64,000 nucleotides of DNA. Source: an uncultured Gemmatimonadales bacterium. Its GTDB lineage: Bacteria; Gemmatimonadota; Gemmatimonadetes; Gemmatimonadales; GWC2-71-9. Each line of letters begins with the position of its first letter. Position 1 is the stretch's first letter. The stretch lies in the NCBI GenBank assembly GCA_963779755.1, contig CAVZZO010000003.1, positions 352,001-416,000 of the forward strand. Reading direction: 5' to 3'. The translations under genes and the position numbers were made by a program. Of the stretch, positions 1,730 through 57,814 are shown one piece after another. The notes beneath the pieces are model-generated. The model was not told where the DNA came from. It saw nothing but the letters and a program-made list of their open reading frames with translations, and did not search any database.

Positions 1730-3298
1730 ATGCTCATAATGCTCACCGCATCCAACAACTTCTTCGCGCTCACCGCAGGGCTGGCCCTCATGTGCAGCCT
1801 GCGGTCCGGCGGCACGGCAGATCAGGCTACCGTGCGCGCTCCCCGGAGCGACGAGGCGGAGCTGGCGCGTACCGTCCTGGCCGCCTCGCGCGGAGCTCCT
1901 CCCCTGCTCTGCGCGCTGGCCACTCGTGCGGTGGAGTCCCGCTACGGCCGCTGGAGCGGGTTCCCCCCGCCCGCCGGCGGCTCCGATACCCTCCCTGCGG
2001 TACGCTGGGCGCTGAGCGACGATCCGGGCGCCGCTGCCCTACCGGTCCTGGTGGCGGCCCTGAATGACGAGGATCCCTGCGCCCGCGGCCTAGCCGCGCG
2101 GCTGATCTCCCGGTCGGAGGATCCCGCGGCCGCGGCCGGCATGCTGCGGGCGCTCTCCTCCTCCACGCCGGGAACCCGGGTCGCGGGAGCCGTGGCGCTG
2201 GGAATGGCGGAGGTCCCCGGTGCGTTGCAGCCGCTCCTCAACCGGCTGGGCGACGGCGACGCCGCCGTGCGCGCCACCGCCGCCTGGGCGTTGGGAAACT
2301 ACGATTCCCTCCGTGCCGGACCGGCGCTGCGGATGCTTCTCCGGGATCCTGTCCCGATGGTGCGAGGCGCCGGGGCTCGCGCGCTGGGACGGCTGGAGGA
2401 CACCACGGCGGTCGAGGCGCTGGCGCGGCTGCTGCGCTCGGACTCGGATGAGCGCGTGCGTATCGCCGCCGCGGAGGCTCTGGGGCAGATCGAATCGCGC
2501 GCCGCGGTGGGGGCGCTGACGGACGCCCTCGCCGACCGGAGTGCGGATGTTCGCCGCACCTCCGCCTGGGCTCTGGGGCAGATCGAATCGCCCGATGGGG
2601 TGCCGGGACTGATCCACGCCCTGGACGATGCCGATCACGAGGTGCGCGAGACGGCGATCTGGGCGCTGGGCCAGATCGAAGACAAGACGGCGGTGCCGGC
2701 CCTCTCACAGCGGCTGCAGCGCGACAATTCGCCGACGGCGCGCAAGCAGGCGGCCTGGGCCCTGGGCCAGATCGAAGATCGGTCGGCGGCCGGCGCGCTG
2801 GGCCACGCGCTGCAGACCGACACCAATGCCGAGGTTCGCAAGACCGCCGCGTGGGCTCTGGGACAGATCGAAAGCAGAGATGCCGTTCCCGCGCTCTCCG
2901 CCGCCCTGCGAGACAGTTCGGCGCAGGTGCGGGCGACCTCCGCCTGGGCCCTGGGGCAGATCGAGCCGGATCACGCCCCCGACGGGCTGGTTCCCGCCTT
3001 GAAGGATGGCTCGGCCGATGTGCGCAAGAACGTCGCGTGGGCCCTCGGCCAGATCGAGGACCGCGGCACCATCCCCGCGCTCCGGGATGCGCTGAAAGAC
3101 TCCGATGGCGAGGTTCGCCGCACCGCGCTGTGGGCGCTCTCTCAGATGGACGACGACTCCGCACGGGAGATATTCGTCGACCAGCTCAAGAGCGATGACC
3201 CGCAAATCCGCGCGGCCGCTGCCCGGGCGCTGGGCCACGGCAGCGCCGGCCCGCGTCCCCGGCCGCATCCCCGGCCCCAGCCGCGTCCCTTCCCATGA
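1730..3298 (+). CDS. HEAT-repeat (PBS lyase-like) protein
   Basis: Many tandem VRxxAAWALGQIE repeats; exact start uncertain. Confidence 0.85.
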   Translation: MLIMLTASNNFFALTAGLALMCSLRSGGTADQATVRAPRSDEAELARTVLAASRGAPPLLCALATRAVESRYGRWSGFPPPAGGSDTLPAVRWALSDDPGAAALPVLVAALNDEDPCARGLAARLISRSEDPAAAAGMLRALSSSTPGTRVAGAVALGMAEVPGALQPLLNRLGDGDAAVRATAAWALGNYDSLRAGPALRMLLRDPVPMVRGAGARALGRLEDTTAVEALARLLRSDSDERVRIAAAEALGQIESRAAVGALTDALADRSADVRRTSAWALGQIESPDGVPGLIHALDDADHEVRETAIWALGQIEDKTAVPALSQRLQRDNSPTARKQAAWALGQIEDRSAAGALGHALQTDTNAEVRKTAAWALGQIESRDAVPALSAALRDSSAQVRATSAWALGQIEPDHAPDGLVPALKDGSADVRKNVAWALGQIEDRGTIPALRDALKDSDGEVRRTALWALSQMDDDSAREIFVDQLKSDDPQIRAAAARALGHGSAGPRPRPHPRPQPRPFP

Positions 3299-5037: not shown

Positions 5038-6546
5038 TTATCCTCGGCGGGTGCCGCCCAGAATGCCGCCCAGGATGCCGCGCATGATCTGGCGGCCGAC
5101 CTGGCTGCCGACGGTGCGCGCAGCCTGCTTGGCCATGGCCTCCACCATGCCCTGGCGGCGGCCGGTGCCCCAGAGAAGACTGTTGAGGCCGCCGCCCTGG
5201 TGTGGCTGGGATTTCCCCGCTTCCCCCCTGGGTCCCTGAGGGGCCGGGGCGGGAGCGGGCGCCCCTTCCGCGGCCGCCGCCCGGCGGCTCAGGATTTCAT
5301 AGGCCGATTCGCGGTTAACCGCGGTGTCGTACTTCCCTCCCACCGGGCTGCGTGAGCGTATGGCGGCACGTTCTTCGGTCGTGATCGACCCCATGCGGCA
5401 GCGCGGCGGACACATCAGGGTACGCTCGACCGGGAGTGGTATCCCCTTCTCCTGCAGGGTGGATACGAGGGCCTCCCCCACCCCGAGTTCCGCGATGACC
5501 CTGGCGACGTCGACCCCCGGATTGGCGGCGAAGGTCTCTGCGGCAGTACGGACCGCTTTCTGGTCTCGCGGGGTATAGGCCCGCAGGGCATGCTGGATCC
5601 GGTTGCCGAGCTGTCCCAGGATCTCGTTCGGTACGTCGTCCGGGAACTGGGAACAGAAATACACCCCTACGCCCTTGGAGCGGATGATGCGCACTACCTG
5701 CTCCACCCGCTGGCGCAGGGCGGGGGGCGCATCATCGAAGAGGAGATGTGCCTCATCGAAGATGAATATCATCTTCGGCCGTTCCAGGTCCCCGACTTCC
5801 GGGAGGTTCTCGAACAGCTCGGAGAGCAGCCACAGGAGAAAGCTGGAGTAGAGGTGCGGCTGGAGAACAAGCTGGTCGGCCGCGAGAATGCTGATGACGC
5901 CGCGGCCCGAGAGATCGGTGCGCATCAGGTCGGCCAGGTCCAGCGCCGGCTCGCCGAAGATGCCTTCCCCACCCTCCCGATCGAGGCCCAGCAGGGCGCG
6001 CTGGATGGCCCCGACGGACGCGGTGCTGACCAGGCCATAGCGGGTGCTGATCTCCTGTCGGTGCTCGGCCACGAAGCCCAGCAGGGCGCGGAGGTCGTCG
6101 AGATCGAGGAGCAGCAGACCCTGGTCGTCCGCCAGCTTGAAGCCGATCTCCAGCACGCCCTCCTGGGTGCCGTTGAGCTCGAGGATCCGGCTCAGCAGGG
6201 CCGGCCCCATTTCGCTCACCGTGGTTCGGACCGGGTGCCCCAGTTTGCCGAACAGGTCCCAGAAGAGGACGGGACTTCCTTCCGGGGCATACCCCTCAAT
6301 ACCAATCTGCTGCACCCGCTGCTGGATCTTCTCGTTGGCGGCCCCGGGCATGGCCAGTCCCGCGACATCGCCTTTCACGTCGGCCATGAAGACCGGAACC
6401 CCGAGCCGCGACAAGCCCTCGGCCAACAACAGCAGCGAGACGGTCTTGCCCGTTCCGGTGGCACCGGCCACCAGGCCGTGCCGGTTGGCATACCGGGCCA
6501 GCAGGTAGACCTGGTGTTCACCGTTGCCGAGGAGGATCTCGTTCAC
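5038..6546 (-). CDS. HerA-like ATPase, DUF853/YjgR family
   Basis: NRHGLVAGATGTGKT Walker A, FIFDEAHLLF Walker B, C-terminal RGILGGILG. Confidence 0.9.
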   Translation of the reverse strand: MNEILLGNGEHQVYLLARYANRHGLVAGATGTGKTVSLLLLAEGLSRLGVPVFMADVKGDVAGLAMPGAANEKIQQRVQQIGIEGYAPEGSPVLFWDLFGKLGHPVRTTVSEMGPALLSRILELNGTQEGVLEIGFKLADDQGLLLLDLDDLRALLGFVAEHRQEISTRYGLVSTASVGAIQRALLGLDREGGEGIFGEPALDLADLMRTDLSGRGVISILAADQLVLQPHLYSSFLLWLLSELFENLPEVGDLERPKMIFIFDEAHLLFDDAPPALRQRVEQVVRIIRSKGVGVYFCSQFPDDVPNEILGQLGNRIQHALRAYTPRDQKAVRTAAETFAANPGVDVARVIAELGVGEALVSTLQEKGIPLPVERTLMCPPRCRMGSITTEERAAIRSRSPVGGKYDTAVNRESAYEILSRRAAAAEGAPAPAPAPQGPRGEAGKSQPHQGGGLNSLLWGTGRRQGMVEAMAKQAARTVGSQVGRQIMRGILGGILGGTRRG

Positions 6547-9093: not shown

Positions 9094-9609
9094 ACGCTAC
9101 TCCATTCTCATAGGAGGAGCAGGCAATCGAGCCTTTCGGCTCAGGGGACGCTTCGATCGGACTTCCCGACAGATCTCAGGTCGCGGCGCCGCCGTCACAC
9201 TCCGGGAGGACCATGAAAGACTCGCACCGCCGCCCGATCATCAGGTACCAACTGGCAGGCGCGGCAACGGACCTGAACGGCCACCATCCGTCCCACAAGA
9301 TTGGGCCGCGGCCGGGACTTGGCAACGGAGGGGCCGGCGAGCCGTCCCAAGCACTGGTGGGTCAGCCGGCGCTCGATGCCCGGAATGCGCGATGCACGCC
9401 GTCGGCGTCAGCTCCCACCATCGCTGACACGGTCAACCCCGTCGCCAGCCGCAACAGTCCGTGGAGCAGGGCCAGCAGCACAGCCAGCAGCAATGCGCCA
9501 CGAACCCGGTTGCCCACCCCCCATTGGTGACCTGTGCGGGCCACCTGCGCGGTTTCGCCAGGTTCGGCCGACTTGAACATGATGGTCGTGCTGATTCCGA
9601 TTGTCCGGG

Positions 9610-13642: not shown

Positions 13643-14014
13643 TCATCGAGTGAGGTTGGCAATGTTCTTCAGTACCGCGCCCCACGCGACCCCGAGCAAG
13701 CCGGCTAACATCAGGGCATACAGTTCAAGCATAAGCGCCCAGCGGCCCACTTGACGCGTCTTCCAGGAATACCATGAAATGGCAAATGGAAGGAGCAGGT
13801 ACAGGAAGAACCCCGCATCCATTGCCCTGGTCAGGCCATGTCGCCGAACATTAGGTGCTAGCCACGTTACCACGGCGAGAGGCGGCACTATGGCAAGGAT
13901 GAGCCACATTCCTTGCGACGGCGGAACCCCCAGGAGGGAATAGAGCATGCCGAACAGCAGACACGAGCCGGTGATGATGTACAGCTTGTACCGGGGTGTC
14001 TCGACCTCGTCCAT
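13643..14014 (-). CDS. Hypothetical membrane protein (cassette)
   Basis: Four hydrophobic segments, GGAGGAG RBS, fills the inter-attC space. Confidence 0.7.
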   Translation of the reverse strand: MDEVETPRYKLYIITGSCLLFGMLYSLLGVPPSQGMWLILAIVPPLAVVTWLAPNVRRHGLTRAMDAGFFLYLLLPFAISWYSWKTRQVGRWALMLELYALMLAGLLGVAWGAVLKNIANLTR

Positions 14015-14171
14015 TGCTCCTCCGTTCAGGCCGTCCGCCTAACGAAGTGCGCGTGTGCTGCGGCGCGAACCCAACTTCCTTCACAAACTTACGGTTCCGC
14101 AGCGCGGCCGCTAGATGCCGGGGAGAGGCACTACGCGGCCGCACCGCCGGCCCTGTCAGCTCGACGCGCTC

Positions 14172-14708
14172 ATGTACGCGGATCCTTTCGGGTTGAGAGG
14201 CTGTCCAGATGTTACGGGAACTGACCCGAATAGTCTAGACGATTGTCCGGAGCGATCCCCAGGTTACTATGCTGCTCGCATTGCCAAGGGTGAAGGTAGC
14301 AGGGTGTTGAATACGGCTTTGGGAGTACTCGCCACGATGGGTCAGGTGCTGGCGGAGCATACGACGGGGAGTGTCACAGTCGGTGAAGAAAGTATCGAGA
14401 CGGATGCCTATGGACTCACGGGTGGACTGGAAAATGGCAATACCAGAGTAGTGCAACGAGTCGGACTTCCCCAGATAGGAGGAAGCCTCGGATTCACTGT
14501 TGGGAATCCGGGTACTGGCGCCGTTGATTTTGGATGGAGCAAGCATCTCGGCATCACGATTCATACCGTGCCCAGTCCTGAAGGCGGCGGAATCTCTGGA
14601 ATCACCTTCAATCTCGGAATCGGCACACCGACCCTTATCGGCATCCAGGACCGGACAGTCGTGTCGCAACCGATTCCCAAATGCCTCGTCTCATGTGCAC
14701 ATGAGTAG
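14172..14708 (+). CDS. Orphan Rhs-type toxin C-terminal tip A (Gly-rich)
   Basis: Begins MYADPFGL, matching the YxDPxGL motif that ends the Rhs core; followed by an overlapping small gene. Confidence 0.7.
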   Translation: MYADPFGLRGCPDVTGTDPNSLDDCPERSPGYYAARIAKGEGSRVLNTALGVLATMGQVLAEHTTGSVTVGEESIETDAYGLTGGLENGNTRVVQRVGLPQIGGSLGFTVGNPGTGAVDFGWSKHLGITIHTVPSPEGGGISGITFNLGIGTPTLIGIQDRTVVSQPIPKCLVSCAHE

Positions 14709-14937
14709 TCTACTTGGGTGGTTTCTGGTTGCCGGGGGAATTTTCTACATCGGCGCTGCTGCGTTCGACTGGATTGGGCGAGCAGCAAGTGTGCCCATCG
14801 TGAAGTGGCTTATCCTGCCGCTCCGCATAGGTGAAATACGCTGGGTTGGTGGTGGCAATCGACGATTTGCCGCTACCCTCGGCATCTTTCTTCTAGTCAT
14901 CGGCTTGCTACTCGTCTTGTTCGGTCCTGAACGATAG
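14701..14937 (+). CDS. Putative two-TM immunity protein (Imm17-like)
   Basis: MSSLLGWFLVAGGIFYIGAAAFDW...; overlaps toxin stop; Imm17 resemblance is from recollection and needs an HMM check. Confidence 0.6.
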   Translation: MSSLLGWFLVAGGIFYIGAAAFDWIGRAASVPIVKWLILPLRIGEIRWVGGGNRRFAATLGIFLLVIGLLLVLFGPER

Positions 14938-14945
14938 GCTGCCGA

Positions 14946-15435
14946 AGGAGCCGGCCTCGTCTAGCCTGGGGCGCTCGCAGTGCCTCCGGGTTGTCGGGCC
15001 TGAGCTCCGAGGGGTCGGGTCTAGTTAGGAGCCTCGCGGGCTGCCGCGCGTGGCGGACCTCGGCCGGCGGAAAAGGAAAGTGGTGGGGGCCCCACGAGTT
15101 CAGCGGAACCCATCGGCTCCAGACCTGCCGCGAGCCGGCTCCCTCGTCGGGCGTCATGCGCCCACGGGAGCAGACGGGGTCACCCCACCGGCTCCAAGGT
15201 GCTACCCGGTCCTTCGATTGTCAAAGAGCGCCGCGTTCCGCGTGCCGGCGGGATCCTGGCACCACCCTCATAGGTCGTTGAGGCTCGGGGCCTCCCACAT
15301 CTTCATGGATGCTCTCCGATCCGCGGCCGGGCGGCCAGCAACACTCTGTGCGCGGAGCTCACCGAAGACGCCGGCGGCTCAAGGCAAATAGTGGGCGGCC
15401 CGGCCGCGCACGCGCGGCTCCCCACCGATCTCCGG
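14946..15435. ncRNA. Candidate bridge/seekRNA-encoding non-coding region of the IS110 element (copies at 23197-23687 and 29671-30156)
   Basis: Conserved, hairpin-rich, no credible ORF, downstream of the recombinase as in IS1111-type elements; contains GTCTAGTTA (15019-15027) matching the insertion junction. Confidence 0.55.
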
Positions 15436-16704
15436 CTATTCGCTCACCACCGGCTCTGCCCGATGCCGCTGCGCCTCCCAGCGCTCCCGCTCGAACGGCT
15501 GGCCCGAGTGGAGTACGGCCAGGAGGAGCGGCACCAGCTTGCGCGCCACCGCACAGACCGCCTTGGTCCGGAGCCCGCCATTGCGGGCCAGCAGGGCCTG
15601 ATAGTACGCGCGGTAGAGCCCCCGGGGCTGGCACCAGCGGCCGCCCAGGAGGAACAGCTGGCGGCGGAGCAGCGGCCGGCCCCGTTTGGACTGTTTGCGC
15701 CGCCCCTGCACGCTGCCGCTGGAACGCTCGACCAGATTCATGCCTGCGAGTTTCAGCACCTGGCGGGGATGAGTGAAGCGCTCCGGAGTGCCCAGCTCGG
15801 CCACAATCGTAGCCGCACAGGTGGCACTCACCTCGGGAATGGTGGTCAGCGCCTTGGCGGCGGGACACTGCTCCACCAAGGCGGCGATCTGCTGGTTCAA
15901 CACCGCGAGCTGCTCCCGCAGGAGGTCCCAGCGGGCCAGGAGCTGCTGGATCTCCAACCGCCGCTCGGGAGCGGCGTCGGCCAGGGCGACACTGGTGCGG
16001 GCGGACTCGCGCAGGACGTGGAGCCGCTCCGGGCCCACGTGGCCCCGCGAGACGGACCGCGCCAGGCGCGTCACCGCGGCCGGGGCGGCCGCCAGGAAGT
16101 CCTGCGGCAGCGGCCAACGCGCCAGCAGGGCGCGCGGGGTGGGCTTGCGCACCTGCGAGAAGTGCGTCAGGAACTCGGGCCAGGCCAGGTCGAGCAGGCT
16201 CTGGAGACGGTTCTTGAACCGGGTTTCCTCGACGGTTAACCGGTGCCGGTGGGTGGTGAGCAGCCGCAGCTCGAGATACGGGGGCTGCAGCGCCGGATAT
16301 CCCACGAAGATCCCCAGGCTCACCAGCTTGCAGATCTCGGCGGCATCCTTCGCGTCCGTCTTGTTGGGGCTGTTATCCTCCAGTTCCTTGGCCCGCTTGG
16401 TGTGGGCCGGCAGGATATTGACCAGCGCATAGCCGCGCGCCCGCAGGCACTCGGCAAACGTGAAGCCGTGATGGCCGGCGAACTCCAGCCCCACCAGCAT
16501 CTGTCCGGGCCGGATGCCGGGAAACCAGGCCGTCAACTGCGCCGCGGCGGCCTCGAAGCCCGCGCGGCTCACCGGCACCCGGACCGGCTTCGTGCGGCGC
16601 CCATCGGGGCCCTGAGCAACCAGCACGTGGACCCGCTTCGCGGTATCCACGCCTACGTGAACGGGGAACGTGCGGGTATAGGCAGACTTTTCGTCGGGGG
16701 TCAT
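15436..16704 (-). CDS. IS110-family recombinase/transposase
   Basis: DEDD residues in HVGVDTAK, GLEFAG and KTDAKDA; C-terminal SSGS serine motif and AVARKL; ATG at 16704 has GGAG RBS (ORF track extends to 16731). Confidence 0.95.
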   Translation of the reverse strand: MTPDEKSAYTRTFPVHVGVDTAKRVHVLVAQGPDGRRTKPVRVPVSRAGFEAAAAQLTAWFPGIRPGQMLVGLEFAGHHGFTFAECLRARGYALVNILPAHTKRAKELEDNSPNKTDAKDAAEICKLVSLGIFVGYPALQPPYLELRLLTTHRHRLTVEETRFKNRLQSLLDLAWPEFLTHFSQVRKPTPRALLARWPLPQDFLAAAPAAVTRLARSVSRGHVGPERLHVLRESARTSVALADAAPERRLEIQQLLARWDLLREQLAVLNQQIAALVEQCPAAKALTTIPEVSATCAATIVAELGTPERFTHPRQVLKLAGMNLVERSSGSVQGRRKQSKRGRPLLRRQLFLLGGRWCQPRGLYRAYYQALLARNGGLRTKAVCAVARKLVPLLLAVLHSGQPFERERWEAQRHRAEPVVSE

Positions 16705-16800
16705 GGCGCGGCTCCGGGTGGAGGGAATCACAGGAGTCGCGGAAGGAGCTACGGGCCGCGCAGCGGCGTCAAGCGGGTATAGATGTCTAGTTAAGCGACT

Positions 16801-17107
16801 ATGCTCGGGTTGCGTACTTCACGGGGAGGTCAAGACTCCGCTCTCTTCTGCGGGGAGGCTCGACTCGAGGCCGGGGTGCTCCTGCGGCGACTCCGGCGGG
16901 GCGAGAAGCTCGGGCTCCCGCACTCCCGACCGATACCGGGACTCGGCCGGCGGTGTCAAGAGTTGCGGATTCCCGACCAAGGACGCCACCTGGCGGATCA
17001 TCTATCGGCTCGATCGAGACGCAATCGTGATTGTGGAGGTCTTTGCGAAGAGCCAAGCGACTCCACAACAGGTCCTGGCCACGTGCGCGCGGCGGCCGAA
17101 CCACTAG
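16801..17107 (+). pseudogene. RelE/HigB (Gp49-like) toxin, frameshifted
   Basis: LHGEVKTP, ARLEAGVLLRRL...PHSRP and WRIIYRLDRDAIVIVEVFAK lie in different frames. Confidence 0.7.
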
Positions 17108-22265: not shown

Positions 22266-22447
22266 GGGGGCTCCTCCTTGGAGCCTGAAATATAGCGGCG
22301 ACCGGTCCCTGACGCTTAACGAAGTGCGCGTGTGCTGCGGCGCGAACCCGCGCTCCTTCACAAACCTACGTTTCCACAGCGCGACAGCTAGATCCCCGGG
22401 AGATGCGCCGCCAGCCCGCGCGACCGGCCCGTCAGAACGACGCGCTC

Positions 22448-22903
22448 ATGTACGCGGATCCTTTCGGGCTGCTTGCCCAGGATTGTTGTATCGAAACGGG
22501 GGATTGGCGAAAGGATAACCTGCTTCACCCTGCTGTCTACAGCGGCAAGAGAGACAACCCGATGCTGGGAGTAGCTGTGGGTCTCCTGGCCGTTGCAGGT
22601 GGGGCCGAACTGGCTGCTCCCAGGTTATTTGCCGCGGCCACCGCTGCTCTTCCTAAGGTACCGTTTGAGAAATTCCAGGACTGGGGACGAAATGTTGTCC
22701 AATGGGGCCGTGGGGCAGCGGGGGCAATTCAGCGGGTTTCTGAAGTGACGGCCGAGCAGGCCTCTAAATTGGATCCACAGAAAGTGAAGATGGCTCGCGA
22801 CTTCTACCAGAAAGCTGTTGATGCTGGCCGAGGGGGAGCCGCCGCACCCGAACGAGTAAAGCTGATGGAACGCATTTTAGACCTGCAGCAGAGAACCCAT
22901 TAG
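22448..22903 (+). CDS. Orphan Rhs-type toxin C-terminal tip B (DUF4951-like C-terminus)
   Basis: Begins MYADPFGL, hydrophobic middle, WGRGAAGA...RDFY...RVKLM; DUF4951 resemblance is from recollection. Confidence 0.7.
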   Translation: MYADPFGLLAQDCCIETGDWRKDNLLHPAVYSGKRDNPMLGVAVGLLAVAGGAELAAPRLFAAATAALPKVPFEKFQDWGRNVVQWGRGAAGAIQRVSEVTAEQASKLDPQKVKMARDFYQKAVDAGRGGAAAPERVKLMERILDLQQRTH

Positions 22904-22949
22904 TGGCTCGGTCCGGTCTATTCGAGCATTGCAACACGGAGGAAGAGCC

Positions 22950-23198
22950 ATGCTGGAAGCAGCGGTCACACTTCGGCTTACGAATAGATGCGAAACTGCG
23001 CGGAAGCTCGTGATTGAGCCATGGACCACCGAGTTTCGACTGCAACCTGGGCACACTTACGACTTGGTGATATCAGGGGACCTTGGCCTCCCCTTAGAGG
23101 TTGAGTTCGAGGACGACGAACTAACCGTATACACTTTCGATTCCGCCAATGCCTCCTTCAAGATTTCCGAAGGCGGGGCTGAACTTAAACCACTGTAG
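22950..23198 (+). CDS. Putative immunity protein B
   Basis: GGAGG RBS, small acidic protein after the toxin, IEPW motif shared with 40756-41010. Confidence 0.65.
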   Translation: MLEAAVTLRLTNRCETARKLVIEPWTTEFRLQPGHTYDLVISGDLGLPLEVEFEDDELTVYTFDSANASFKISEGGAELKPL

Positions 23199-23687
23199 GA
23201 GCCCGGCCCTGTCTAGCCTGGGGCGCTCGGGGCGCCTCCGGGTTGTCGGGCCTGAACTCCGAGGGGTCGGGTCTAGTTAGGAGCCTCGCGGGCTGCCGCG
23301 CGTGGCGGACCTCGGCCGGCGGAAAAGGAAAGTGGTGGGGGCCCCACGAGTTCAGCGGAACCCATCGGCTCCAGACCTGCCGCGAGCCGGCTCCCTCGTC
23401 GGGCGTCATGCGCCCACGGGAGCAGACGGGGTCACCCCACCGGCTCCAAGGTGCTACCCGGTCCTTCGATTGTCAAAGAGCGCCGCGTTCCGCGTGCCGG
23501 CGGGATCCTGGCACCACCCTCATAGGTCGTTGAGGCTCGGGGCCTCCCACATCTTCATGGATGCTCTCCGATCCGCGGCCGGGCGGCCAGCCATACTCTG
23601 TGCGCGGAACTCACCGAAGACGCCGGCGGCTCAAGGCAAATAGAGGGCGGCCCGGCCGCGCACGCGCGGCTCCCCCCCGGTCTCCGA

Positions 23688-24956
23688 CTATTCGATCACC
23701 ACCGGCTCTGCGTGATGCCGCTGGGTCTCCCAGCGCTCCCGGTCGAACGGCTGGCCCGACTGGAGCACGGCCAGGAGGAGCGGCACCAGCTTGCGGGCCA
23801 CCGCGCAGACCGCCTTGGTCCGGAGCCCCCCGTTACGGGCGAGCAGGGCCTGATAGTACGCGCGGTAGAGCCCCCGGGGCTGGCACCAGCGGCCGCCCAG
23901 GAGGAACAGCTGGCGGCGGAGCAGCGGCCGGCCCCGTTTGGACTGTTTGCGCCGCCCCTGCACGCTGCCGCTGGAACGCTCGACCAGATTCATGCCTGCG
24001 AGTTTCAGCACCTGGCGGGGATGAGTGAAGCGCTCCGGAGTGCCCAGCTCGGCCACAATCGTAGCCGCACAGGTGGCACTCACCTCGGGAATGGTGGTCA
24101 GCGCCTTGGCGGCGGGACACTGCTCCACCAAGGCGGCGATCTGCTGGTTCAACACCGCGAGCTGCTCCCGCAGGAGGTCCCAGCGGGCCAGGAGCTGCTG
24201 GATCTCCAACCGCCGCTCGGGAGCGGCGTCGGCCAGGGCGACACTGGTGCGGGCGGACTCGCGCAGGACGTGGAGCCGCTCCGGGCCCACGTGGCCCCGC
24301 GAGACGGACCGCGCCAGGCGCGTCACCGCGGCCGGGGCGGCCGCCAGGAAGTCCTGCGGCAGCGGCCAACGCGCCAGCAGGGCGCGCGGGGTGGGCTTGC
24401 GCACCTGCGAGAAGTGCGTCAGGAACTCGGGCCAGGCCAGGTCGAGCAGGCTCTGGAGACGGTTCTTGAACCGGGTTTCCTCGACGGTTAACCGGTGCCG
24501 GTGGGTGGTGAGCAGCCGCAGCTCGAGATACGGGGGCTGCAGCGCCGGATACCCCACGAAGATCCCCAGGCTCACCAGCTTGCAGATCTCGGCGGCATCC
24601 TTCGCGTCCGTCTTGTTGGGGCTGTTATCCTCCAGTTCCTTGGCCCGCTTGGTGTGGGCCGGCAGGATATTGACCAGCGCATAGCCGCGCGCCCGCAGGC
24701 ACTCGGCAAACGTGAAGCCGTGATGGCCGGCGAACTCCAGCCCCACCAGCATCTGTCCGGGCCGGACGCCGGGAAACCAGGCCGTCAACTGCGCCGCGGC
24801 GGCCTCGAAGCCTGCGCGGCTCACCGGCACTCGGACCGGCTTCGTCCGCCGGCCATCGGGGCCCTGGGCGACCAGGACGTGAACGCGCTTGGCGGTGTCC
24901 ACACCCACGTGGACGGGAAACCAGCGGGCGTAGGCGGACTTCTCATCGGGGGTCAT
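23688..24956 (-). CDS. IS110-family recombinase/transposase
   Basis: Near-identical to 15436-16704 with variant termini. Confidence 0.95.
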   Translation of the reverse strand: MTPDEKSAYARWFPVHVGVDTAKRVHVLVAQGPDGRRTKPVRVPVSRAGFEAAAAQLTAWFPGVRPGQMLVGLEFAGHHGFTFAECLRARGYALVNILPAHTKRAKELEDNSPNKTDAKDAAEICKLVSLGIFVGYPALQPPYLELRLLTTHRHRLTVEETRFKNRLQSLLDLAWPEFLTHFSQVRKPTPRALLARWPLPQDFLAAAPAAVTRLARSVSRGHVGPERLHVLRESARTSVALADAAPERRLEIQQLLARWDLLREQLAVLNQQIAALVEQCPAAKALTTIPEVSATCAATIVAELGTPERFTHPRQVLKLAGMNLVERSSGSVQGRRKQSKRGRPLLRRQLFLLGGRWCQPRGLYRAYYQALLARNGGLRTKAVCAVARKLVPLLLAVLQSGQPFDRERWETQRHHAEPVVIE

Positions 24957-25065
24957 AGCGCGGCTCCGGGTGGAAGGAATCACAGGAGTCGCGGAAGGAG
25001 CTACGGGCCGCGCCGCGGCGTCAAGCGGGTATAGATGTCTAGTTAGGCTTCACTGCGCATTCAAC

Positions 25066-28797: not shown

Positions 28798-28922
28798 GAA
28801 GTGCGCGTGTGCTGCAGCGCGATCCCTCAGGATTTCACAAACTTACGCTTCCACAGCCGCGCCGCCAGGAGGCCGGAGCATGGGCCCGCGGCCCGCGCGA
28901 CGGCCTGCAGAACGACGCGCTC

Positions 28923-29377
28923 ATGTACGCGGATCCTTTCGGGCTGCCTGCCCAGGATTGTTGTATCGAAACGGGGGATTGGCGAAAGGATAACCTGCTT
29001 CACCCTGCTGTCTACAGCGGCAAGAGAGACAACCCGATGCTGGGAGTAGCTGTGGGTCTCCTGGCCGTTGCAGGTGGGGCCGAACTGGCTGCTCCCAGGT
29101 TATTTGCCGCGGCCACCGCTGCTCTTCCTAAGGTACCGTTTGAGAAATTCCAGGACTGGGGACGAAATGTTGTCCAATGGGGCCGTGGGGCAGCGGGGGC
29201 AATTCAGCGGGTTTCTGAAGTGACGGCGAGCAGGCCTCTAAATTGGATCCACAGAAAGTGAAGATGGCTCGCGACTTCTACCAGAAAGCTGTTGATGCTG
29301 GCCGAGGGGGAGCCGCCGCACCCGAACGAGTAAAGCTGATGGAACGCATTTTAGACCTGCAGCAGAGAACCCATTAG
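28923..29377 (+). pseudogene. Toxin tip B, frameshifted copy
   Basis: Same as 22448-22903 apart from a 1-nt deletion near 29227 and a substitution near the start. Confidence 0.75.
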
Positions 29378-29423
29378 TGGCTCGGTCCGGTCTATTCGAG
29401 CATTGCAACACGGAGGAAGAGCC

Positions 29424-29672
29424 ATGCTGGAAGCAGCGGTCACACTTCGGCTTACGAATAGATGCGAAACTGCGCGGAAGCTCGTGATTGAGCCATGGAC
29501 CACCGAGTTTCGACTGCAACCTGGGCACACTTACGACTTGGTGATATCAGGGGACCTTGGCCTCCCCTTAGAGGTTGAGTTCGAGGACGACGAACTAACC
29601 GTATACACTTTCGATTCCGCCAATGCCTCCTTCAAGATTTCCGAAGGCGGGGCTGAACTTAAACCACTGTAG
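29424..29672 (+). CDS. Putative immunity protein B (copy)
   Basis: Identical protein to 22950-23198. Confidence 0.65.
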   Translation: MLEAAVTLRLTNRCETARKLVIEPWTTEFRLQPGHTYDLVISGDLGLPLEVEFEDDELTVYTFDSANASFKISEGGAELKPL

Positions 29673-30156
29673 GAGCCCGGCCCTGTCTAGCCGGGGCGCT
29701 CGGGGCGCCTCCGGGTTGTCGGGCCTGAACTCCGAGGGGTTGGGTCTAGTTAGGAGCCTCGCGGGCTGCCGCGCGTGGCGGACCTCGGCCGGCGGAAAAG
29801 GAAAGTGGTGGGGGCCCCACGAGTTCAGCGGAACCCATCGGCTCCAGACCTGCCGCGAGCCGGCTCCCTCGTCGGGCGTATGCGCCCACGGGAGCAGACG
29901 GGGTCACCCCACCGGCTCCAAGGTGCTACCGGTCCTTCGATTGTCAAAGAGCGCCGCGTTCCGCGTGCCGGCGGGATCCTGGCACCACCCTCATAGGTCG
30001 TTGAGGCTCGGGGCCTCCCACATCTTCATGGATGCTCTCCGATCGCGGCCGGGCGGCCAGCAACACTCTGTGCGCGGAGCTCACCGAAGACGCCGGCGGC
30101 TCAAGGCAAATAGAGGGCGGCCTGGCCGCGCACGCGCGGCTCCCACCGATCTCCGG

Positions 30157-31422
30157 CTATTCGCTCACCACCGGCTCTGCGTGATGCCGCTGCGCCTCCC
30201 AGCGCTCCCGCTCGAACGGCTGGCCCGAGTGGAGTACGGCCAGGAGGAGCGGCACCAGCTTGCGCGCCACCGCACAGACCGCCTTGGTCCGGAGCCCGCC
30301 ATTGCGGGCCAGCAGGGCCTGATAGTACGCGCGGTAGAGCCCCCGGGGCTGGCACCAGCGGCCGCCCAGGAGGAACAGCTGGCGGCGGAGCAGCGGCAGG
30401 CCCCGTTTGGACTGTTTGCGCCGCCCCTGCACGCTGCCGCTGGAACGCTCGACCAGATTCATGCCTGCGAGTTTCAGCACCTGGCGGGGATGAGTGAAGC
30501 GCTCCGGAGTGCCCAGCTCGGCCACAATCGTAGCCGCACAGGTGGCACTCACCTCGGGAATGGTGGTCAGCGCCTTGGCGGCGGGACACTGCTCCACCAA
30601 GGCGGCGATCTGCTGGTTCAACACCGCGAGCTGCTCCCGCAGGAGGTCCCAGCGGGCCAGGAGCTGCTGGATCTCCAACCGCCGCTCGGGAGCGGCGTCG
30701 GCCAGGGCGACACTGGTGCGGGCGGACTCGCGCAGGACGTGGAGCCGCTCCGGGCCCACGTGGCCCCGCGAGACGGACCGCGCCAGGCGCGTCACCGCGG
30801 CCGGGGCGGCTGCCAGGAAGTCCTGCGGCAGCGGCCAACGCGCCAGCAGGGCGCGCGGGGTGGGCTTGCGCACCTGCGAGAAGTGCGTCAGGAACTCGGG
30901 CCAGGCCAGGTCGAGCAGGCTCTGGAGACGGTTCTTGAACCGGGTTTCCTCGACGGTTAACCGGTGCGGTGGGTGGTGAGCAGCCGCAGCTCGAGATACG
31001 GGGGCTGCAGCGCCGGATATCCCACGAAGATCCCCAGGCTCACCAGCTTGCAGATCTCGGCGGCATCCTTCGCGTTCGTCTTGTTGGGGCTGTTATCCTC
31101 CAGTTCCTTGGCCCGCTTGGTGTGGGCCGGCAGGATATTGACCAGCGCATAGCCGCGCGCCGCAGGCACTCGGCAAACGTGAAGCCGTGATGGCCGGCGA
31201 ACTCCAGCCCCACCAGCATCTGTCCGGGCCGGACGCCGGGAAACCAGGCCGTCAACTGCGCCGCGGCGGCCTCGAAGCCTGCGCGGCTCACCGGCACTCG
31301 GACCGGCTTCGTCGCCGGCCATCGGGGCCCTGGGCGACCAGGACGTGAACGCGCTTGGCGGTGTCCACACCCACGTGGACGGGAAACCAGCGGGCGTAGG
31401 CGGACTTCTCATCGGGGGTCAT
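30157..31422 (-). pseudogene. IS110 recombinase, frameshifted copy
   Basis: Homologous to the other two copies but split across frames. Confidence 0.85.
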
Positions 31423-31508
31423 AGCGCGGCTCCGGGTGGAAGGAATCACAGGAGTCGCGGAAGGAGCTACGGGCCGCGCCGCGGCGTCAAGCGGGTATAG
31501 ATGTCTTG

Positions 31509-52800: not shown

Positions 52801-52969
52801 TCGGCGCCTGAGATGTCTTTCTAACCAGGCAGGCTCTGCCGCAATCAAGCACCCATCGACGTAGCACTTAGGCCCTTGGTTGATCTTTGCTGTCGTTCCG
52901 GAAAAGCGCAAGAGGTGTCGATGTAGGAGGCCCGGAGTCTCTGTTACAGGTAACAGCGCCCTCCTCCTG

Positions 52970-53071
52970 GCGCTGTCCTCTGCACGACCCTCCCAGCGCC
53001 ATCCTCTGCACGACCCTCCCAGCGCTGTCCTCTGCACGACCCTCCCAGCGCCGTCCTCGGCGACCCTCCCA
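52970..53071. repeat. 26-bp tandem repeat, about 4 units
   Basis: GCGC(TG/CA)TCCTCTGCACGACCCTCCCA at 52970, 52996, 53022 and a shorter unit at 53048. Confidence 0.9.
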
Positions 53072-53143
53072 ACGCTGTCTTCGCACCGCGGTCCTCTTTT
53101 GCACTGCCCTCCTAGGTGTGCCCCATCCCCCCCCTCCCCGCCG

Positions 53144-54136
53144 CTACGCCCGGTCCATCGGGCTCCGCACCCCCAGCCCACCCCGCTGCAGGACATGGGT
53201 ATAGATCATCGTGGTGCTGACGTCCCGATGGCCCAGCAGCTCCTGCACGGTCCGGATGTCATACCCATCCTCCAGCAGGTGGGTCGCGAAGCTGTGCCGC
53301 AGGGTGTGGCAGCTCGCCCGCTTGGTGAGGCCCGCCGCCTGGACCGCCTTGCGCATGGCGCGCTGCAGCAGACTATGGTGCACGTGGGTCCGCCCCTGCC
53401 CTCCCGTCTCCGGCTCGACCACCATGATCCTCCTCCCGGGGAAGAGATACTGCCAACGCCACTCCCGCGATGCCGCCGGGTACTTGCGCCGCAACGCGAA
53501 CGGCAGCGGCGCCACCCCCAGCCCCTCACTCAGGTCGCGCTGATGCCGCAACCGCAGCTGCGCGAGGTACTGCGTGAGTTCGTCCCGAAGGCTCATGGGC
53601 AGCATGGTACTGCGGTCCTTGGCCCCCTTGCCGCTCCGGACCATGACCTGGCTCATGGTGAAATCCAGGTCCTGCACCCGCAGCCGCAGGCACTCGGTCA
53701 GCCGCAGACCACTCCCATAGAGCAGGCTGGCCATCAGCCGGCACCGCCCCCGCAGCTGCCGCAGCACCAGCCGAACTTCCTCCCGGCTCAGCACCACCGG
53801 CAATCGATGCGGCCGCTTGGCCCACACGATCTGTTCCACCTGCGCCAGCTCCCGCCCCAGGACCTCCCGGTAAAGAAAGACCAGCGCCGAGAGCGCCTGG
53901 TTCTGGGTGCTCGCCGCCACCCGCCCCCGCAGCGCCAGGTCGGTCAGAAAGTCTCCCACCTCCCGCTCGGCCAGATCGGCCGGGTGGCGCTTGCCGTGGA
54001 AGAGGACAAAACGCCGGATCCAGTGCACGTAGGAACGCTCGGTCCGGGGGCTGTAGTGCCGGGCACGAATGGCCTGCCGGACCAGGGGCAGGAGCCGGGG
54101 ACGCGCCCGCACGGGCGGCTGCAGGGCGGAATCCAT
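53144..54136 (-). CDS. intI: Integron integrase
   Basis: [12 protein letters not shown]-terminus, [34 protein letters not shown] and the IntI-specific insertion [10 protein letters not shown]...WRWQYLFP. Confidence 0.97.
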
Positions 54137-54317
54137 GCGCCAACCTATAACGAGGCAGGGCAAGCCTCGGCCTGATTGGAGCGCAGCCGGGCACGGAAAA
54201 GCGCGGGGCAGCTCGGGAGGGGGGATTCAGCGGGTCCCTGCGCCGTCTTCCCGCCTTCCCGCCTTCCCGCCTACCTTTGGATCACACCATTGCCAGGTCC
54301 CGCGCCCGGAGGTCGTC

Positions 54318-56708: not shown

Positions 56709-57814
56709 TGGACTGTACCAGTTGAACGTTAAGCGACGTGGATGCGGTGAGCGGGATCATCGTACTTCCACCGAATCGGTCGCGGGTCGCGGTTGTACTG
56801 CCGAATGTACTTCCTGATGCGGCGGGCGAGGTCTTTGGTGGAGGTGAAGACGCCCCGATGAATCAGATCGCGTTCGATTTTGGCGAACCAGAGCTCCACT
56901 TGATTCAACCAAGAGCTGTAGGTCGGAGTGAAGTGCAACTGCACGCGCGGATGCTCGGCCAGGAATTCCGCGACGCGTTGCGTTTTATGCACCGACAAGT
57001 TGTCGCAGATGATGTGCACCTCACGCCGCGCCGGCACGCGCGTCAGGAGATCGGCCAGAAACGCAATGAAGGCCTGGCTCGTGTGGCGCTCGGCAGTCTG
57101 GCCGATCACCAGGCCCGTCCGCGTCTCGAGGGCGGCGAACAGCGACAGCGTGCCGTGGCGGACGTATTCAAACCCATGGCGTTCCGCGCGGCCGGGCGAC
57201 AGCGGCAGCATCGGATCCTTGCGCTCGAGGGCCTGGATCGCCGTCTTCTCATCCACACAGAAAACGGCGGCATGCTGCGGCGGATGCAAGTAGAGCCCGA
57301 TCACATCCGCCGCTTTGGTCTCGAAGTCGGGATCGTTCGACGCCATATAACGCTCCATCCGGTGCGGCTGAATCCCGTGCTTCCTCCAGACCCGTGCGAC
57401 CGTCATGTGCGGCAGCTTGAGGCGCTTCGCCAGTCGCCGGGTGCTCCAATGCGTCGACCCGTCCGGCGGGGCCGTGCGCGTCGCATCGAGAATGCGTGCT
57501 TCCAGCTGGGGAGTCCGGACTCGGACGGGACGCCCCGCGTGCCGCACGTACAGCCCGGCCAGGCGCGCCTCCACAAACCGGCGCTTCCACTTACTGATGA
57601 ACGGTTCCGAGCGCCCCGTGCGTGCGGCGATGTCGCGGTAGGTCAGGCCCGCCGCCAACAGCAGCAACACACGCGCGACCATAGCATCCTGGGCGCGCCC
57701 CGTCCGACTGCGCGTCCGACGCTCCAACTCGGCGCGCTCGGCGGGGGTCAGCACGAGTGGTTGAGTTTCCATGCCCACCAATCTAACACTAAACACTTAT
57801 CTGGTACAGTCCAC
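56708..57814 (-). mobile_element. IS630-family element (transposase ORF 56729-57796)
   Basis: Perfect IRs GTGGACTGTACCAG, TA duplication at 56706-56707 and 57815-57816; DEK, DNL and SWLNQVE motifs. Confidence 0.95.

Follow-up and report, generated by a model that had tools for sequence, protein, structure and literature searches.

Candidate RNA-guided IS110-family units carrying Rhs toxin tips in a Gemmatimonadales integron and in related Rhs loci

We analyzed a stretch of 64,000 nucleotides (nt), hereafter the window, from an uncultured Gemmatimonadales bacterium (assembly GCA_963779755.1, contig CAVZZO010000003.1, positions 352,001 to 416,000), in which an earlier note had pointed out three IS110-type elements with toxin genes. 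These three units, named E1, E2, and E3, lie in a chromosomal integron with more than 50 attC sites, and each of them splits a different attC. Each carries an open reading frame (ORF) that begins like the C-terminal toxin tip of an Rhs protein, a small gene, a non-coding region, and an IS110-family recombinase gene. It is likely, judging from the sequence, that such a unit is an RNA-guided swapper of Rhs toxin tips, for which attC would be a second landing and storage place. The evidence consists of the exact ends of the units, of related units found at the ends of Rhs genes, and of predicted guide loops that follow the sequences of both the units and their sites.

Three units in attC sites

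The coordinates of all features are given in Table 1. The 22-nt end CATGTACGCGGATCCTTTCGGG is found exactly three times in the window (at 14171, 22447, and 28922; none expected from 100 shuffles), and so is the opposite, recombinase-side end GGGTATAGATGT (at 16775, 25027, and 31493). An alignment of the units with 70 nt of flanking sequence placed the outer boundaries at the same positions in E1, E2, and E3. Inside these boundaries, E1 has a cargo of ~770 nt of its own (cargo A) and another cargo is common to E2 and E3 (cargo B), and all three share a near-identical backbone made of a ~490-nt non-coding region, a minus-strand ORF of 431 amino acids (aa), and the end GGGTATAGATGT; in E1, near-identity runs from ~14941 to the right end. 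The shared layout described in the earlier note is therefore borne out.

The units sit between GACGCG-CT and [A/T]GTTAG, with CT on either side. Their flanks read ..GACGCGCT, then the unit, then CTAGTTA(A/G)GC, the right flank of E3 being CTTGTTAGAC. Unoccupied attC sites of the same array end in GACGCGCT[T/A/C]GTTAG, which corresponds to the joined flanks, so that each insertion consists of the unit plus one CT. A general attC expression (RYYYAAC..GTTRRRY within 170 nt) detected 2 sites only, and the joined-flank pattern and repeat families were used instead: GACGCGCT-AGTTAGGC, with at most three mismatches, gave 31 matches in the window against 0.59 expected. The prediction that removal of a unit and one CT leaves an intact attC was thus confirmed, as was the left boundary proposed for E1. 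The proposed right boundary (16788) was corrected to 16786, positions 16787-16788 being the second copy of the CT core. This short core, of the IS110 type, is present at both junctions of E1, E2, and E3 alike. The left flanks of the three units are diverged attC sequences and the right flanks are unrelated, which argues for three separate insertions of the entire 2.6-kb unit. As far as sequence comparison tells, the mobile unit includes the cargo, as had been claimed, because three independent attC insertions have the same outer ends and the predicted donor guides (see below) covary with both ends, the tip-start end included.

Both cargo ORFs begin at the second base of the unit, and MYADPFGL, which holds the DPxGL motif of the Rhs core/tip junction, is encoded in all three units. 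A search of 1.84 billion representatives gave 16 relatives of the cargo A tip at E≤1e-3; close relatives measure 159-187 aa, and one begins with the Rhs core-end residues VNLYAYAGNNPVTFSDPFGL. The tip and small gene of cargo B are 44% and 42% identical, respectively, to a pair attached to an Rhs core end in the related locus L030. The cargo can accordingly be described as an Rhs-type tip with a partner gene, in agreement with the earlier note. The scan of the cargo against protein families that the note had recommended gave DUF4951 for the cargo B tip; the cargo A tip matched no Pfam or NCBIfam family, and its small gene had only a weak DUF4395 match below the cut-off. By its position, the cargo A small gene is presumed to be an immunity gene; the tips would be toxic and the small genes protective.

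Cargo A and cargo B are unlike each other and sit on mosaic backbones, which supports the view that cargo is exchangeable. The E3 backbone is E2-like, then E1-like, then E2-like again. It also shows eight one-base deletions, seven of them removing a C from a run of C, and its tip has one more, with a frameshift at alignment column 415. These deletions could reflect decay of the copy, or long-read homopolymer or assembly errors.

The recombinase contains PF01548 (DEDD_Tnp_IS110, E 1.8e-24) and PF02371 (Transposase_20, E 1.5e-16) and matches NF033542, "IS110 family RNA-guided transposase", with 195 bits (cut-off 140). Residues D29, E83, D126, D129, and S338 are invariant across 33 aligned relatives. 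By these domains the units are classified in the IS110 family, as the earlier note had stated. Its further comparison, with the attC-targeting IS1111 elements (ISKpn4, ISPst6, and ISPa25; Tetu & Holmes 2008, Post & Hall 2009, as cited in PMC11187229), held in part. Like that group as described there, the units have an RNA-guided type of DEDD recombinase, a long non-coding region downstream of its gene, and insertions of one orientation at one attC end. Unlike it, they carry coding cargo and a second predicted target module, and their recombinase measures 422-431 aa rather than the 330-350 aa given in that description, on which our comparison with the group is based. The subterminal inverted repeats of 7-17 bp reported for IS1111 elements (PMC11208160) have no counterpart here: the best exact inverted match between the unit ends is 5 nt, a length reached in 486-490 of 500 shuffles. 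Terminal inverted repeats are likewise lacking, as is usual in the IS110 family. Among 72,556 plasmid records, the best relatives of the recombinase, IS110 elements of Priestia/Bacillus, are at most 34% identical. On the grounds of length, missing subterminal repeats, and this distance from plasmid-borne relatives, we place the recombinase outside the IS1111-attC group.

Related units at the ends of Rhs genes

Of 8000 scored candidates, 492 are relatives of the recombinase at E≤1e-3, and the best 120 of these are 396-434 aa long, with 63-98% identity. A profile built from 33 relatives led to 37 loci (one genome per species), of which 35 are labelled as metagenome-assembled genomes (MAGs) of Gemmatimonadota lineage and two, L002 and L006, are labelled with other phyla. 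All loci were oriented with the recombinase forward and described in the terms used for IS621, as LT-core-(RD ... LD)-core-RT, where LT and RT are the left and right target halves, RD is the recombinase-side end of the unit, and LD is its far end.

Tip starts were sought with the pattern DP[FLIVMWY]G[LMIV], on the strand opposite the recombinase, in the 22 loci that continue for 2 kb or more beyond this gene. A DPxGL match was present 1.3-2.0 kb past the recombinase in 21 of them and corresponded to a tip start of the form xxxxDPFGL in 20; L005 showed the preceding core motif only, and L012 had no match in range. Twelve tips continue an Rhs core end in the same reading frame (..DPIGLAGGxNxYxYAGGDP or ..GNNP; the pattern assigned ten of them, and visual inspection added L017 and L036). 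An RHS_repeat protein of 1563 aa in L001 has the cargo tip as its C-terminus. In five loci (L007, L015, L019, L020, and L024), the end of another element follows directly after the tip start. L031 lies at a site that is neither Rhs nor attC, and L010 and L022 were not assigned. The spacing is constant, with the unit end 10 nt before the D codon and then two core bases, and the 16 locus elements with both ends set are 2.25-3.5 kb long. On the other side, a second tip start abuts RD in 13 of the 23 loci with enough sequence there. L006 resembles the window, as its flanks are gcctaact-AG on one side and AG-cgcc... on the other, with ggcgcgatccGTTAGGC ~115 nt further on, which corresponds to a split attC.

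The tips of the related loci are 148-197 aa long and highly diverse. Six of the 37 match toxin-related Pfam families (PT-TG, Tox-REase-9, Ribonuclease, DUF4329, DUF2380, and DUF4951), and four of 17 downstream genes match Barstar, Imm-NTF2-2, DUF4304, or Imm32 (the last below the cut-off). In L029, a Ribonuclease tip is paired with a Barstar downstream gene. The genome search with the recombinase that the earlier note had proposed recovered related units with diverse cargo. Because relatives occupy the Rhs core/tip junction, where their cargo tip is joined to the core in frame, the integron is probably a secondary habitat of these units.

Strings of tip, gene, and element occur in L015, L017, L019, L024, and L032. 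At L015 8684, L019 9216, and L020 ~5285, the tip-side end adjoins an element end that belongs to another subfamily (the ACCCCT type seen in L036), and such arrays are, by their end sequences, composed of different element subfamilies. L032 also contains repeated element-free orphan modules, each a core end with a tip (..NNPVAWSDPYGL), at 9249, 10509, and 11762. They stand beside element-borne tips, so two kinds of orphan coexist in one Rhs locus.

Guide loops of a predicted bridge RNA

In IS621, the left guides of the bridge RNA (LTG for the target, LDG for the donor) are sense copies of the left halves, and the right guides (RTG and RDG) pair with the right halves (Durrant et al. 2024, PMC11208160). 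An alignment of the non-coding regions of the window and six close loci showed conserved blocks with short variable stretches between them. Three kinds of these stretches match the junctions in the IS621 manner. The loops are thus complementary to target and donor halves, core included, as expected of an IS110 RNA. Minimum-free-energy folding of 520-nt stretches was uninformative.

The predicted donor loop carries the motif (a/g)UGA-AGnnGU, ~130-200 nt beyond the recombinase stop and near the 5' end of the RNA. Its first arm, AGAUGU in the window, is the complement of the RD sequence ACATCT and tracks RD across the family: ACCTCT/AGAGGU in L006, ACGTCT/AGACGU in L021 and L031, ACCCCT/AGGGGU in L036, ACACCT/AGGUGU in L011, and ACATTT/AAAUGU in L014. 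Fifteen of the 18 elements have an exact RD complement; the search range missed L012 and L032, of which L032 does show the motif. Pairing in the donor hairpin is kept through two-sided changes (GGAGGC/GCCUC, GGCC/GGCC, and GGGC/GCCC). The second arm, CU[A/G]UG-AG or UUG-AC, repeats the last bases of LD and the core, and the LDG predicted for E1, CUAUG-AG, fits ..CATG plus the core of its tip-start end. Elements with LD ending in ATG have AUGAG (the window, L008, and L031), those ending in GTG have GUGAG (L001, L002, L004, L006, and L032), and those with TTG-AC have UUGAC (L015 and L017). As LD is the start of the tip, the RNA would treat the tip as an end of the element.

The predicted target modules lie near the 3' end of the RNA and consist of a closing stem, the RTG, a distal hairpin, and the LTG. 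In 11 aligned modules, 82.7% of the cells are paired, compared with 22-52% when the partner strand is slid, and 17 cells changed on both sides, a number attained in none of 500 shuffles. The LTG repeats LT, the core, and 2-4 nt of RD, with matches of 11 nt in the window, 9 in L014, 9 in L019, 11 in L025, and 10 in L031. Core-spanning matches of at least 9 nt between an LTG and its own site were found in 5 of 13 elements, compared with 4 of 156 cross pairs. The RTG pairs with the second core base and with RT. In Rhs-embedded elements, it reads as the sense strand of the last codons of the Rhs core and changes with their spelling (GAUCCGG with GAT CCG, GAUCCCG/GACCCCG with GAT CCC, ACAACCCGG with AAC AAC CCG, and ACAAUCCGG with AAT CCG), and for 10 of 12 elements the RTG matches best within one and the same conserved context. 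It should be noted that comparing own with other RTGs does not discriminate, because the relatives have the same Rhs core end, and that the subfamily L024/L028/L029, with an unsettled core register, was omitted from the guide tables. In the AC-core subfamily, both junctions have AC, as expected.

The window elements have two target modules. M1 matches both halves of the attC site. Its homolog in L031 (ACGCAG, CCCUCACACG) matches both flanks of that element at its non-Rhs, non-attC site, the RTG ACGCAG pairing with C+TGCGT. As these L031 guides match flanks that lie outside the tip, the DNA inserted there, at a site of a third kind, includes the tip. M2 (RTG ACAACCCGG, LTG GCUAGACA) is a block with 85-92% identity to L002, L008, and L031. 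Its RTG matches the Rhs core end of L002 perfectly over 9 nt (sense AAC AAC CCG G), and its LTG with flanking bases has 10 nt in common with the RD-side junction of L001. The window copies may use M2 as well. Two or three modules each were observed in L025 (2765-3500), L002 (1800-1930), and L008 (5500-5620), with the same Rhs-core RTG and differing LTGs. Several LTGs would allow one element to settle next to several kinds of resident tip.

Table 1 Features of the three units and of the integron integrase (window coordinates)
Feature	Position	Strand	Remarks
E1 unit, cargo A	14171..16786	+	2616 nt
E1 proximal part of split attC (R''..L')	14037..14170	+	attC repeat-family member; ends GACGCGCT as in unoccupied attC
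E1 core CT	14169-14170		last two bases of proximal attC part
E1 tip-start end (donor LD/"RE")	14171..14192	+	encodes (L)MYADPFG; first 10 nt precede D codon
Cargo A tip ORF (P0001), putative toxin	14172..14708	+	178 aa, starts MYADPFGL
Cargo A small gene (P0006)	14701..14937	+	78 aa, hydrophobic, overlaps tip stop
E1 non-coding region, predicted bridge RNA	14938..15435	-	downstream of recombinase
E1 target module M2 (predicted)	14959..14995	-	RTG ACAACCCGG, LTG GCUAGAC around hairpin GGCGC/GCGCC
E1 target module M1 (predicted)	15019..15053	-	RTG ACGCGC, LTG CCUAACUAGAC; matches both attC-site halves
E1 donor-binding loop (predicted)	15265..15306	-	AGAUGU, hairpin, CUAUGAG (tip-side end + core)
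E1 IS110-family recombinase (P0004)	15436..16731	-	431 aa from GTG, 422 aa from ATG
E1 recombinase-side end (donor RD/"LE")	16775..16786	+	GGGTATAGATGT
E1 second core CT copy and attC R' box	16787..16796	+	AGTTAAGC
E2 unit, cargo B	22447..25038	+	2592 nt
E2 cargo B tip ORF (P0002)	22448-22903	+	151 aa, DUF4951
E2 cargo B small gene (P0003)	22929-23198	+	89 aa
E2 non-coding region	23199-23687		M2 23211-23247, M1 23271-23305, donor loop 23517-23558 (predicted)
E2 recombinase	23688-24983	-	
E3 unit, cargo B, decayed copy	28922..31504	+	2583 nt; site is the attC CT/TGTTAGAC
E3 tip ORF, frameshifted			ORF ends at 29261
E3 small gene	29403-29672	+	intact
E3 recombinase pieces	30157-30873, 30957-31412	-	broken frame
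Integron integrase of the array hosting the units	53144..54163	-	TIGR02249, 448 bits (cut-off 265)

Proposed mechanism and alternatives

We propose that the mobile element would comprise a DEDD recombinase of ~420 aa and a bridge RNA encoded downstream of its gene. One end of the unit would be the first 10 nt of an Rhs C-terminal tip, four codons ahead of DPFGL; with the tip start as a unit end, the tip and the next gene would be built-in cargo, placed between that end and the bridge RNA. The donor loop would read both unit ends. M1 would read the attC site CCTAACT-AG-CGCGT (in recombinase orientation), which would explain the three insertions in the window, and M2, conserved in the family, would read the last Rhs core codons (N-N-P) and the tip start. 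By analogy with IS621 and ISEc11, the unit would be excised as a circle, ..GATAGATGT-CT-CATGTACGCGG.., the junction of which would be bound by the donor loop. The target module would then hold attC (through M1) or the junction between an Rhs core and its resident tip (through M2, or the single or multiple modules of the relatives), and core exchange would insert the unit. In an Rhs gene, the new tip would be fused in frame, because the core supplies bases one and two of the codon following ..NNP or ..GDP; a new downstream gene would be added, and the former tip would be pushed behind the recombinase-side end, giving strings of tip, gene, and element. In attC, the tip end of the unit supplies an ATG. 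Cargo would be reshuffled between copies by homologous recombination in the shared backbone; no special step would be needed for this exchange, because tandem arrays flank every cargo with backbone on both sides. The earlier picture of an RNA-guided shuttle that stores tip/immunity modules in integrons is thereby supported and at the same time widened, with the Rhs junction as the other, probably primary, site. More tentatively, one and the same element could alternate between an Rhs gene as in-frame expression site and attC as storage site by means of its two kinds of target module, a suggestion that we put forward with some reservation.

Several observations weigh against this account. Recombination activity is read from the arrangement of the sequences. 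E3 is broken, and most related loci come from MAG contigs, some of them frameshifted. No Rhs core was found within the window, where the copies are orphan tips; word-based searches, which are weak evidence here, found no longer protein containing cargo A or B, and the match between cargo A and a 1953-aa RHS_repeat protein is limited to the first ~60 residues. No Rfam family was detected over 14000-17000 at E≤1, the folding energy of single sequences was no better than that of shuffles (z 0.25 and -0.32), and the RNA model draws on covariation among related, non-independent elements. The RTG of M1 in the window, ACGCGC, matches over 6 nt only, and shuffle p-values for the RTGs of single elements are mostly weak (0.007 to 0.79), so that the argument from the RTG relies on position and covariation and not on single matches. 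The closest Rhs-embedded relatives fit poorly: the flanks of L001 and L032 are unlike their own M1, and their matches are 7 and 5 nt to the M2 LTG and 7/10 to the RTG. In L001, the donor arm is mismatched, and M1 predicts an attC-like site despite the location in an Rhs gene. Finally, elements of the AG-core subfamily have AG at the RD-side junction and, at the Rhs side, AC in 10 of 12 cases and GC and GT once each. This mismatch may mean that exchange spares the first core position, the differing base staying with its left neighbor or segregating after a heteroduplex; otherwise, the junction would have another origin.

Homologous recombination offers such an origin. According to Jackson et al. 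(2009; PMC2935791), tips move through assumed episomal circles, and recombination would here pass through the stretch coding for DPFGL, the IS110 element being a neighbor or the source of the circle. The Rhs-side junctions of the AG-core subfamily, which are without the donor core, suit this published model. The ~25 nt that tip starts have in common could serve it, the recombinase-side junction of L032 resembles an intact circle junction (tip start-AG-end), and the mosaic backbones show that recombination of this kind acts on the copies. Homologous integration of the Campbell type ranks second, given the fit between the target guides and the Rhs junction. RTG and LTG are complementary to the core end and the resident tip start in the correct register and within a conserved loop, and they follow synonymous codon differences. 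In L001, the 8 nt closest to the core in the sequence beside the recombinase-side end differ from the element's own tip start, and a crossover further inside would not produce such a junction. The insertions in attC and in L031 had no homology to use. We therefore regard homologous recombination as an unlikely source of these junctions, and RNA-guided insertion of the whole unit as the better account.

It is very improbable that only the 1.85 kb made up of the recombinase gene and the non-coding region is mobile, with the tip and small gene resident. That length would be closer to the 1.0-1.6 kb of typical IS110 elements (10.64898/2026.08.14.744561), and the identity between E1 and E2 begins only at the non-coding region. 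Against this, attC is restored, at three different attC sites, only by joint removal of tip, small gene, and backbone; no attC lies between cargo and non-coding region; the donor-loop arm tracks the tip-side end in three states; and both target guides of L031 match flanks outside the tip. Hardly credible is the movement of the units as cassettes by IntI, or their copying by segmental duplication within the array, despite the presence of an integron integrase and of many cassettes duplicated at 98-100% identity: the units split attC between L' and R', have no attC of their own, and are not bounded by attC crossover points as a cassette would be; the three copies differ in cargo and in flanking cassettes; and related units exist outside integrons.

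The cassette array hosting the units spans ~10,000 to 52,500 and includes 52 copies of one repeat family that represents the attC 5' part. Between 27800 and 42600, many cassettes are present in 3-5 copies with 98-100% identity (repeat families D9, D11, D12, and D14-D17), and the array is, on the evidence of these copies, expanding through duplication. The 3' end of the integrase gene faces the array rather than diverging from it, and the gap between the two, ~600 nt long, has no attC and contains short direct repeats at 52960-53080. Just beyond the integron, an IS630-like DDE_3 transposase with helix-turn-helix domains is encoded at 56729-57796 (minus strand). A HerA-like ATPase is encoded at 5038-6546 (minus strand), and direct repeats with a period of 93 nt at 1230-1545 and 2457-3150, inside the plus-strand ORFs 2-1648 and 1730-3298, suggest a repeat protein. 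The G+C content in the window is 58-74%.

The units resemble several described systems in part. Like IS621 as described (PMC11208160), they have a two-base core at both junctions and predicted guides in internal loops closed by a distal hairpin. Unlike IS621, the RNA would be encoded 3' of the gene, with the donor loop first and two or more target modules in tandem, and one donor half is protein-coding cargo sequence. Hu et al. (bioRxiv 10.64898/2026.08.14.744561, August 2026) describe cargo-bearing IS110 loci, mostly with plasmid-derived or resistance cargo acquired via half-matches. Those loci likewise comprise IS110 elements of more than 2 kb with genes, tandem and nested insertions, and several guide loops per locus; here, by contrast, the type and position of the cargo are fixed across the clade and its first codons form the donor end. 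Their main text, supplements aside, mentions no toxin, integron, attC, Rhs, or IS1111. The Rhs displacement described in PMC2935791 also joins a new tip and downstream gene to the core and shunts the old tip downstream in strings. Its account has no integrase travelling with Rhs, unlike the present loci, in which a predicted site-specific, RNA-guided recombinase accompanies each tip. Also unlike the orphan tips described there, the displaced tips lack core sequence and begin precisely four codons ahead of DPFGL. Titles and abstract openings of the listed papers on IS110 with Rhs or polymorphic toxins revealed no such element, one paper having only IS110 transposases near WXG toxins, and no publication joining bridge RNA and Rhs was found in a search that covered texts outside subscription journals and supplements.

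What appears new here is a set of bridge-RNA-like guide loops predicted to read both ends of a unit, attC, and the Rhs core end. How tips are attached and displaced has been an open question since the 2009 model, and the predicted guides read the Rhs core end. A natural bridge-RNA donor site would lie in coding sequence, its insertion yielding an in-frame fusion, and a single RNA would hold several target modules. Two diversity-generating systems, integron arrays and polymorphic toxin loci, would thereby be linked, and the units may explain the exchange of Rhs toxins. If the alternation between the two kinds of site is real, these units would represent a natural RNA-guided, in-frame replacement of protein domains and the missing recombinase behind Rhs C-terminal displacement.

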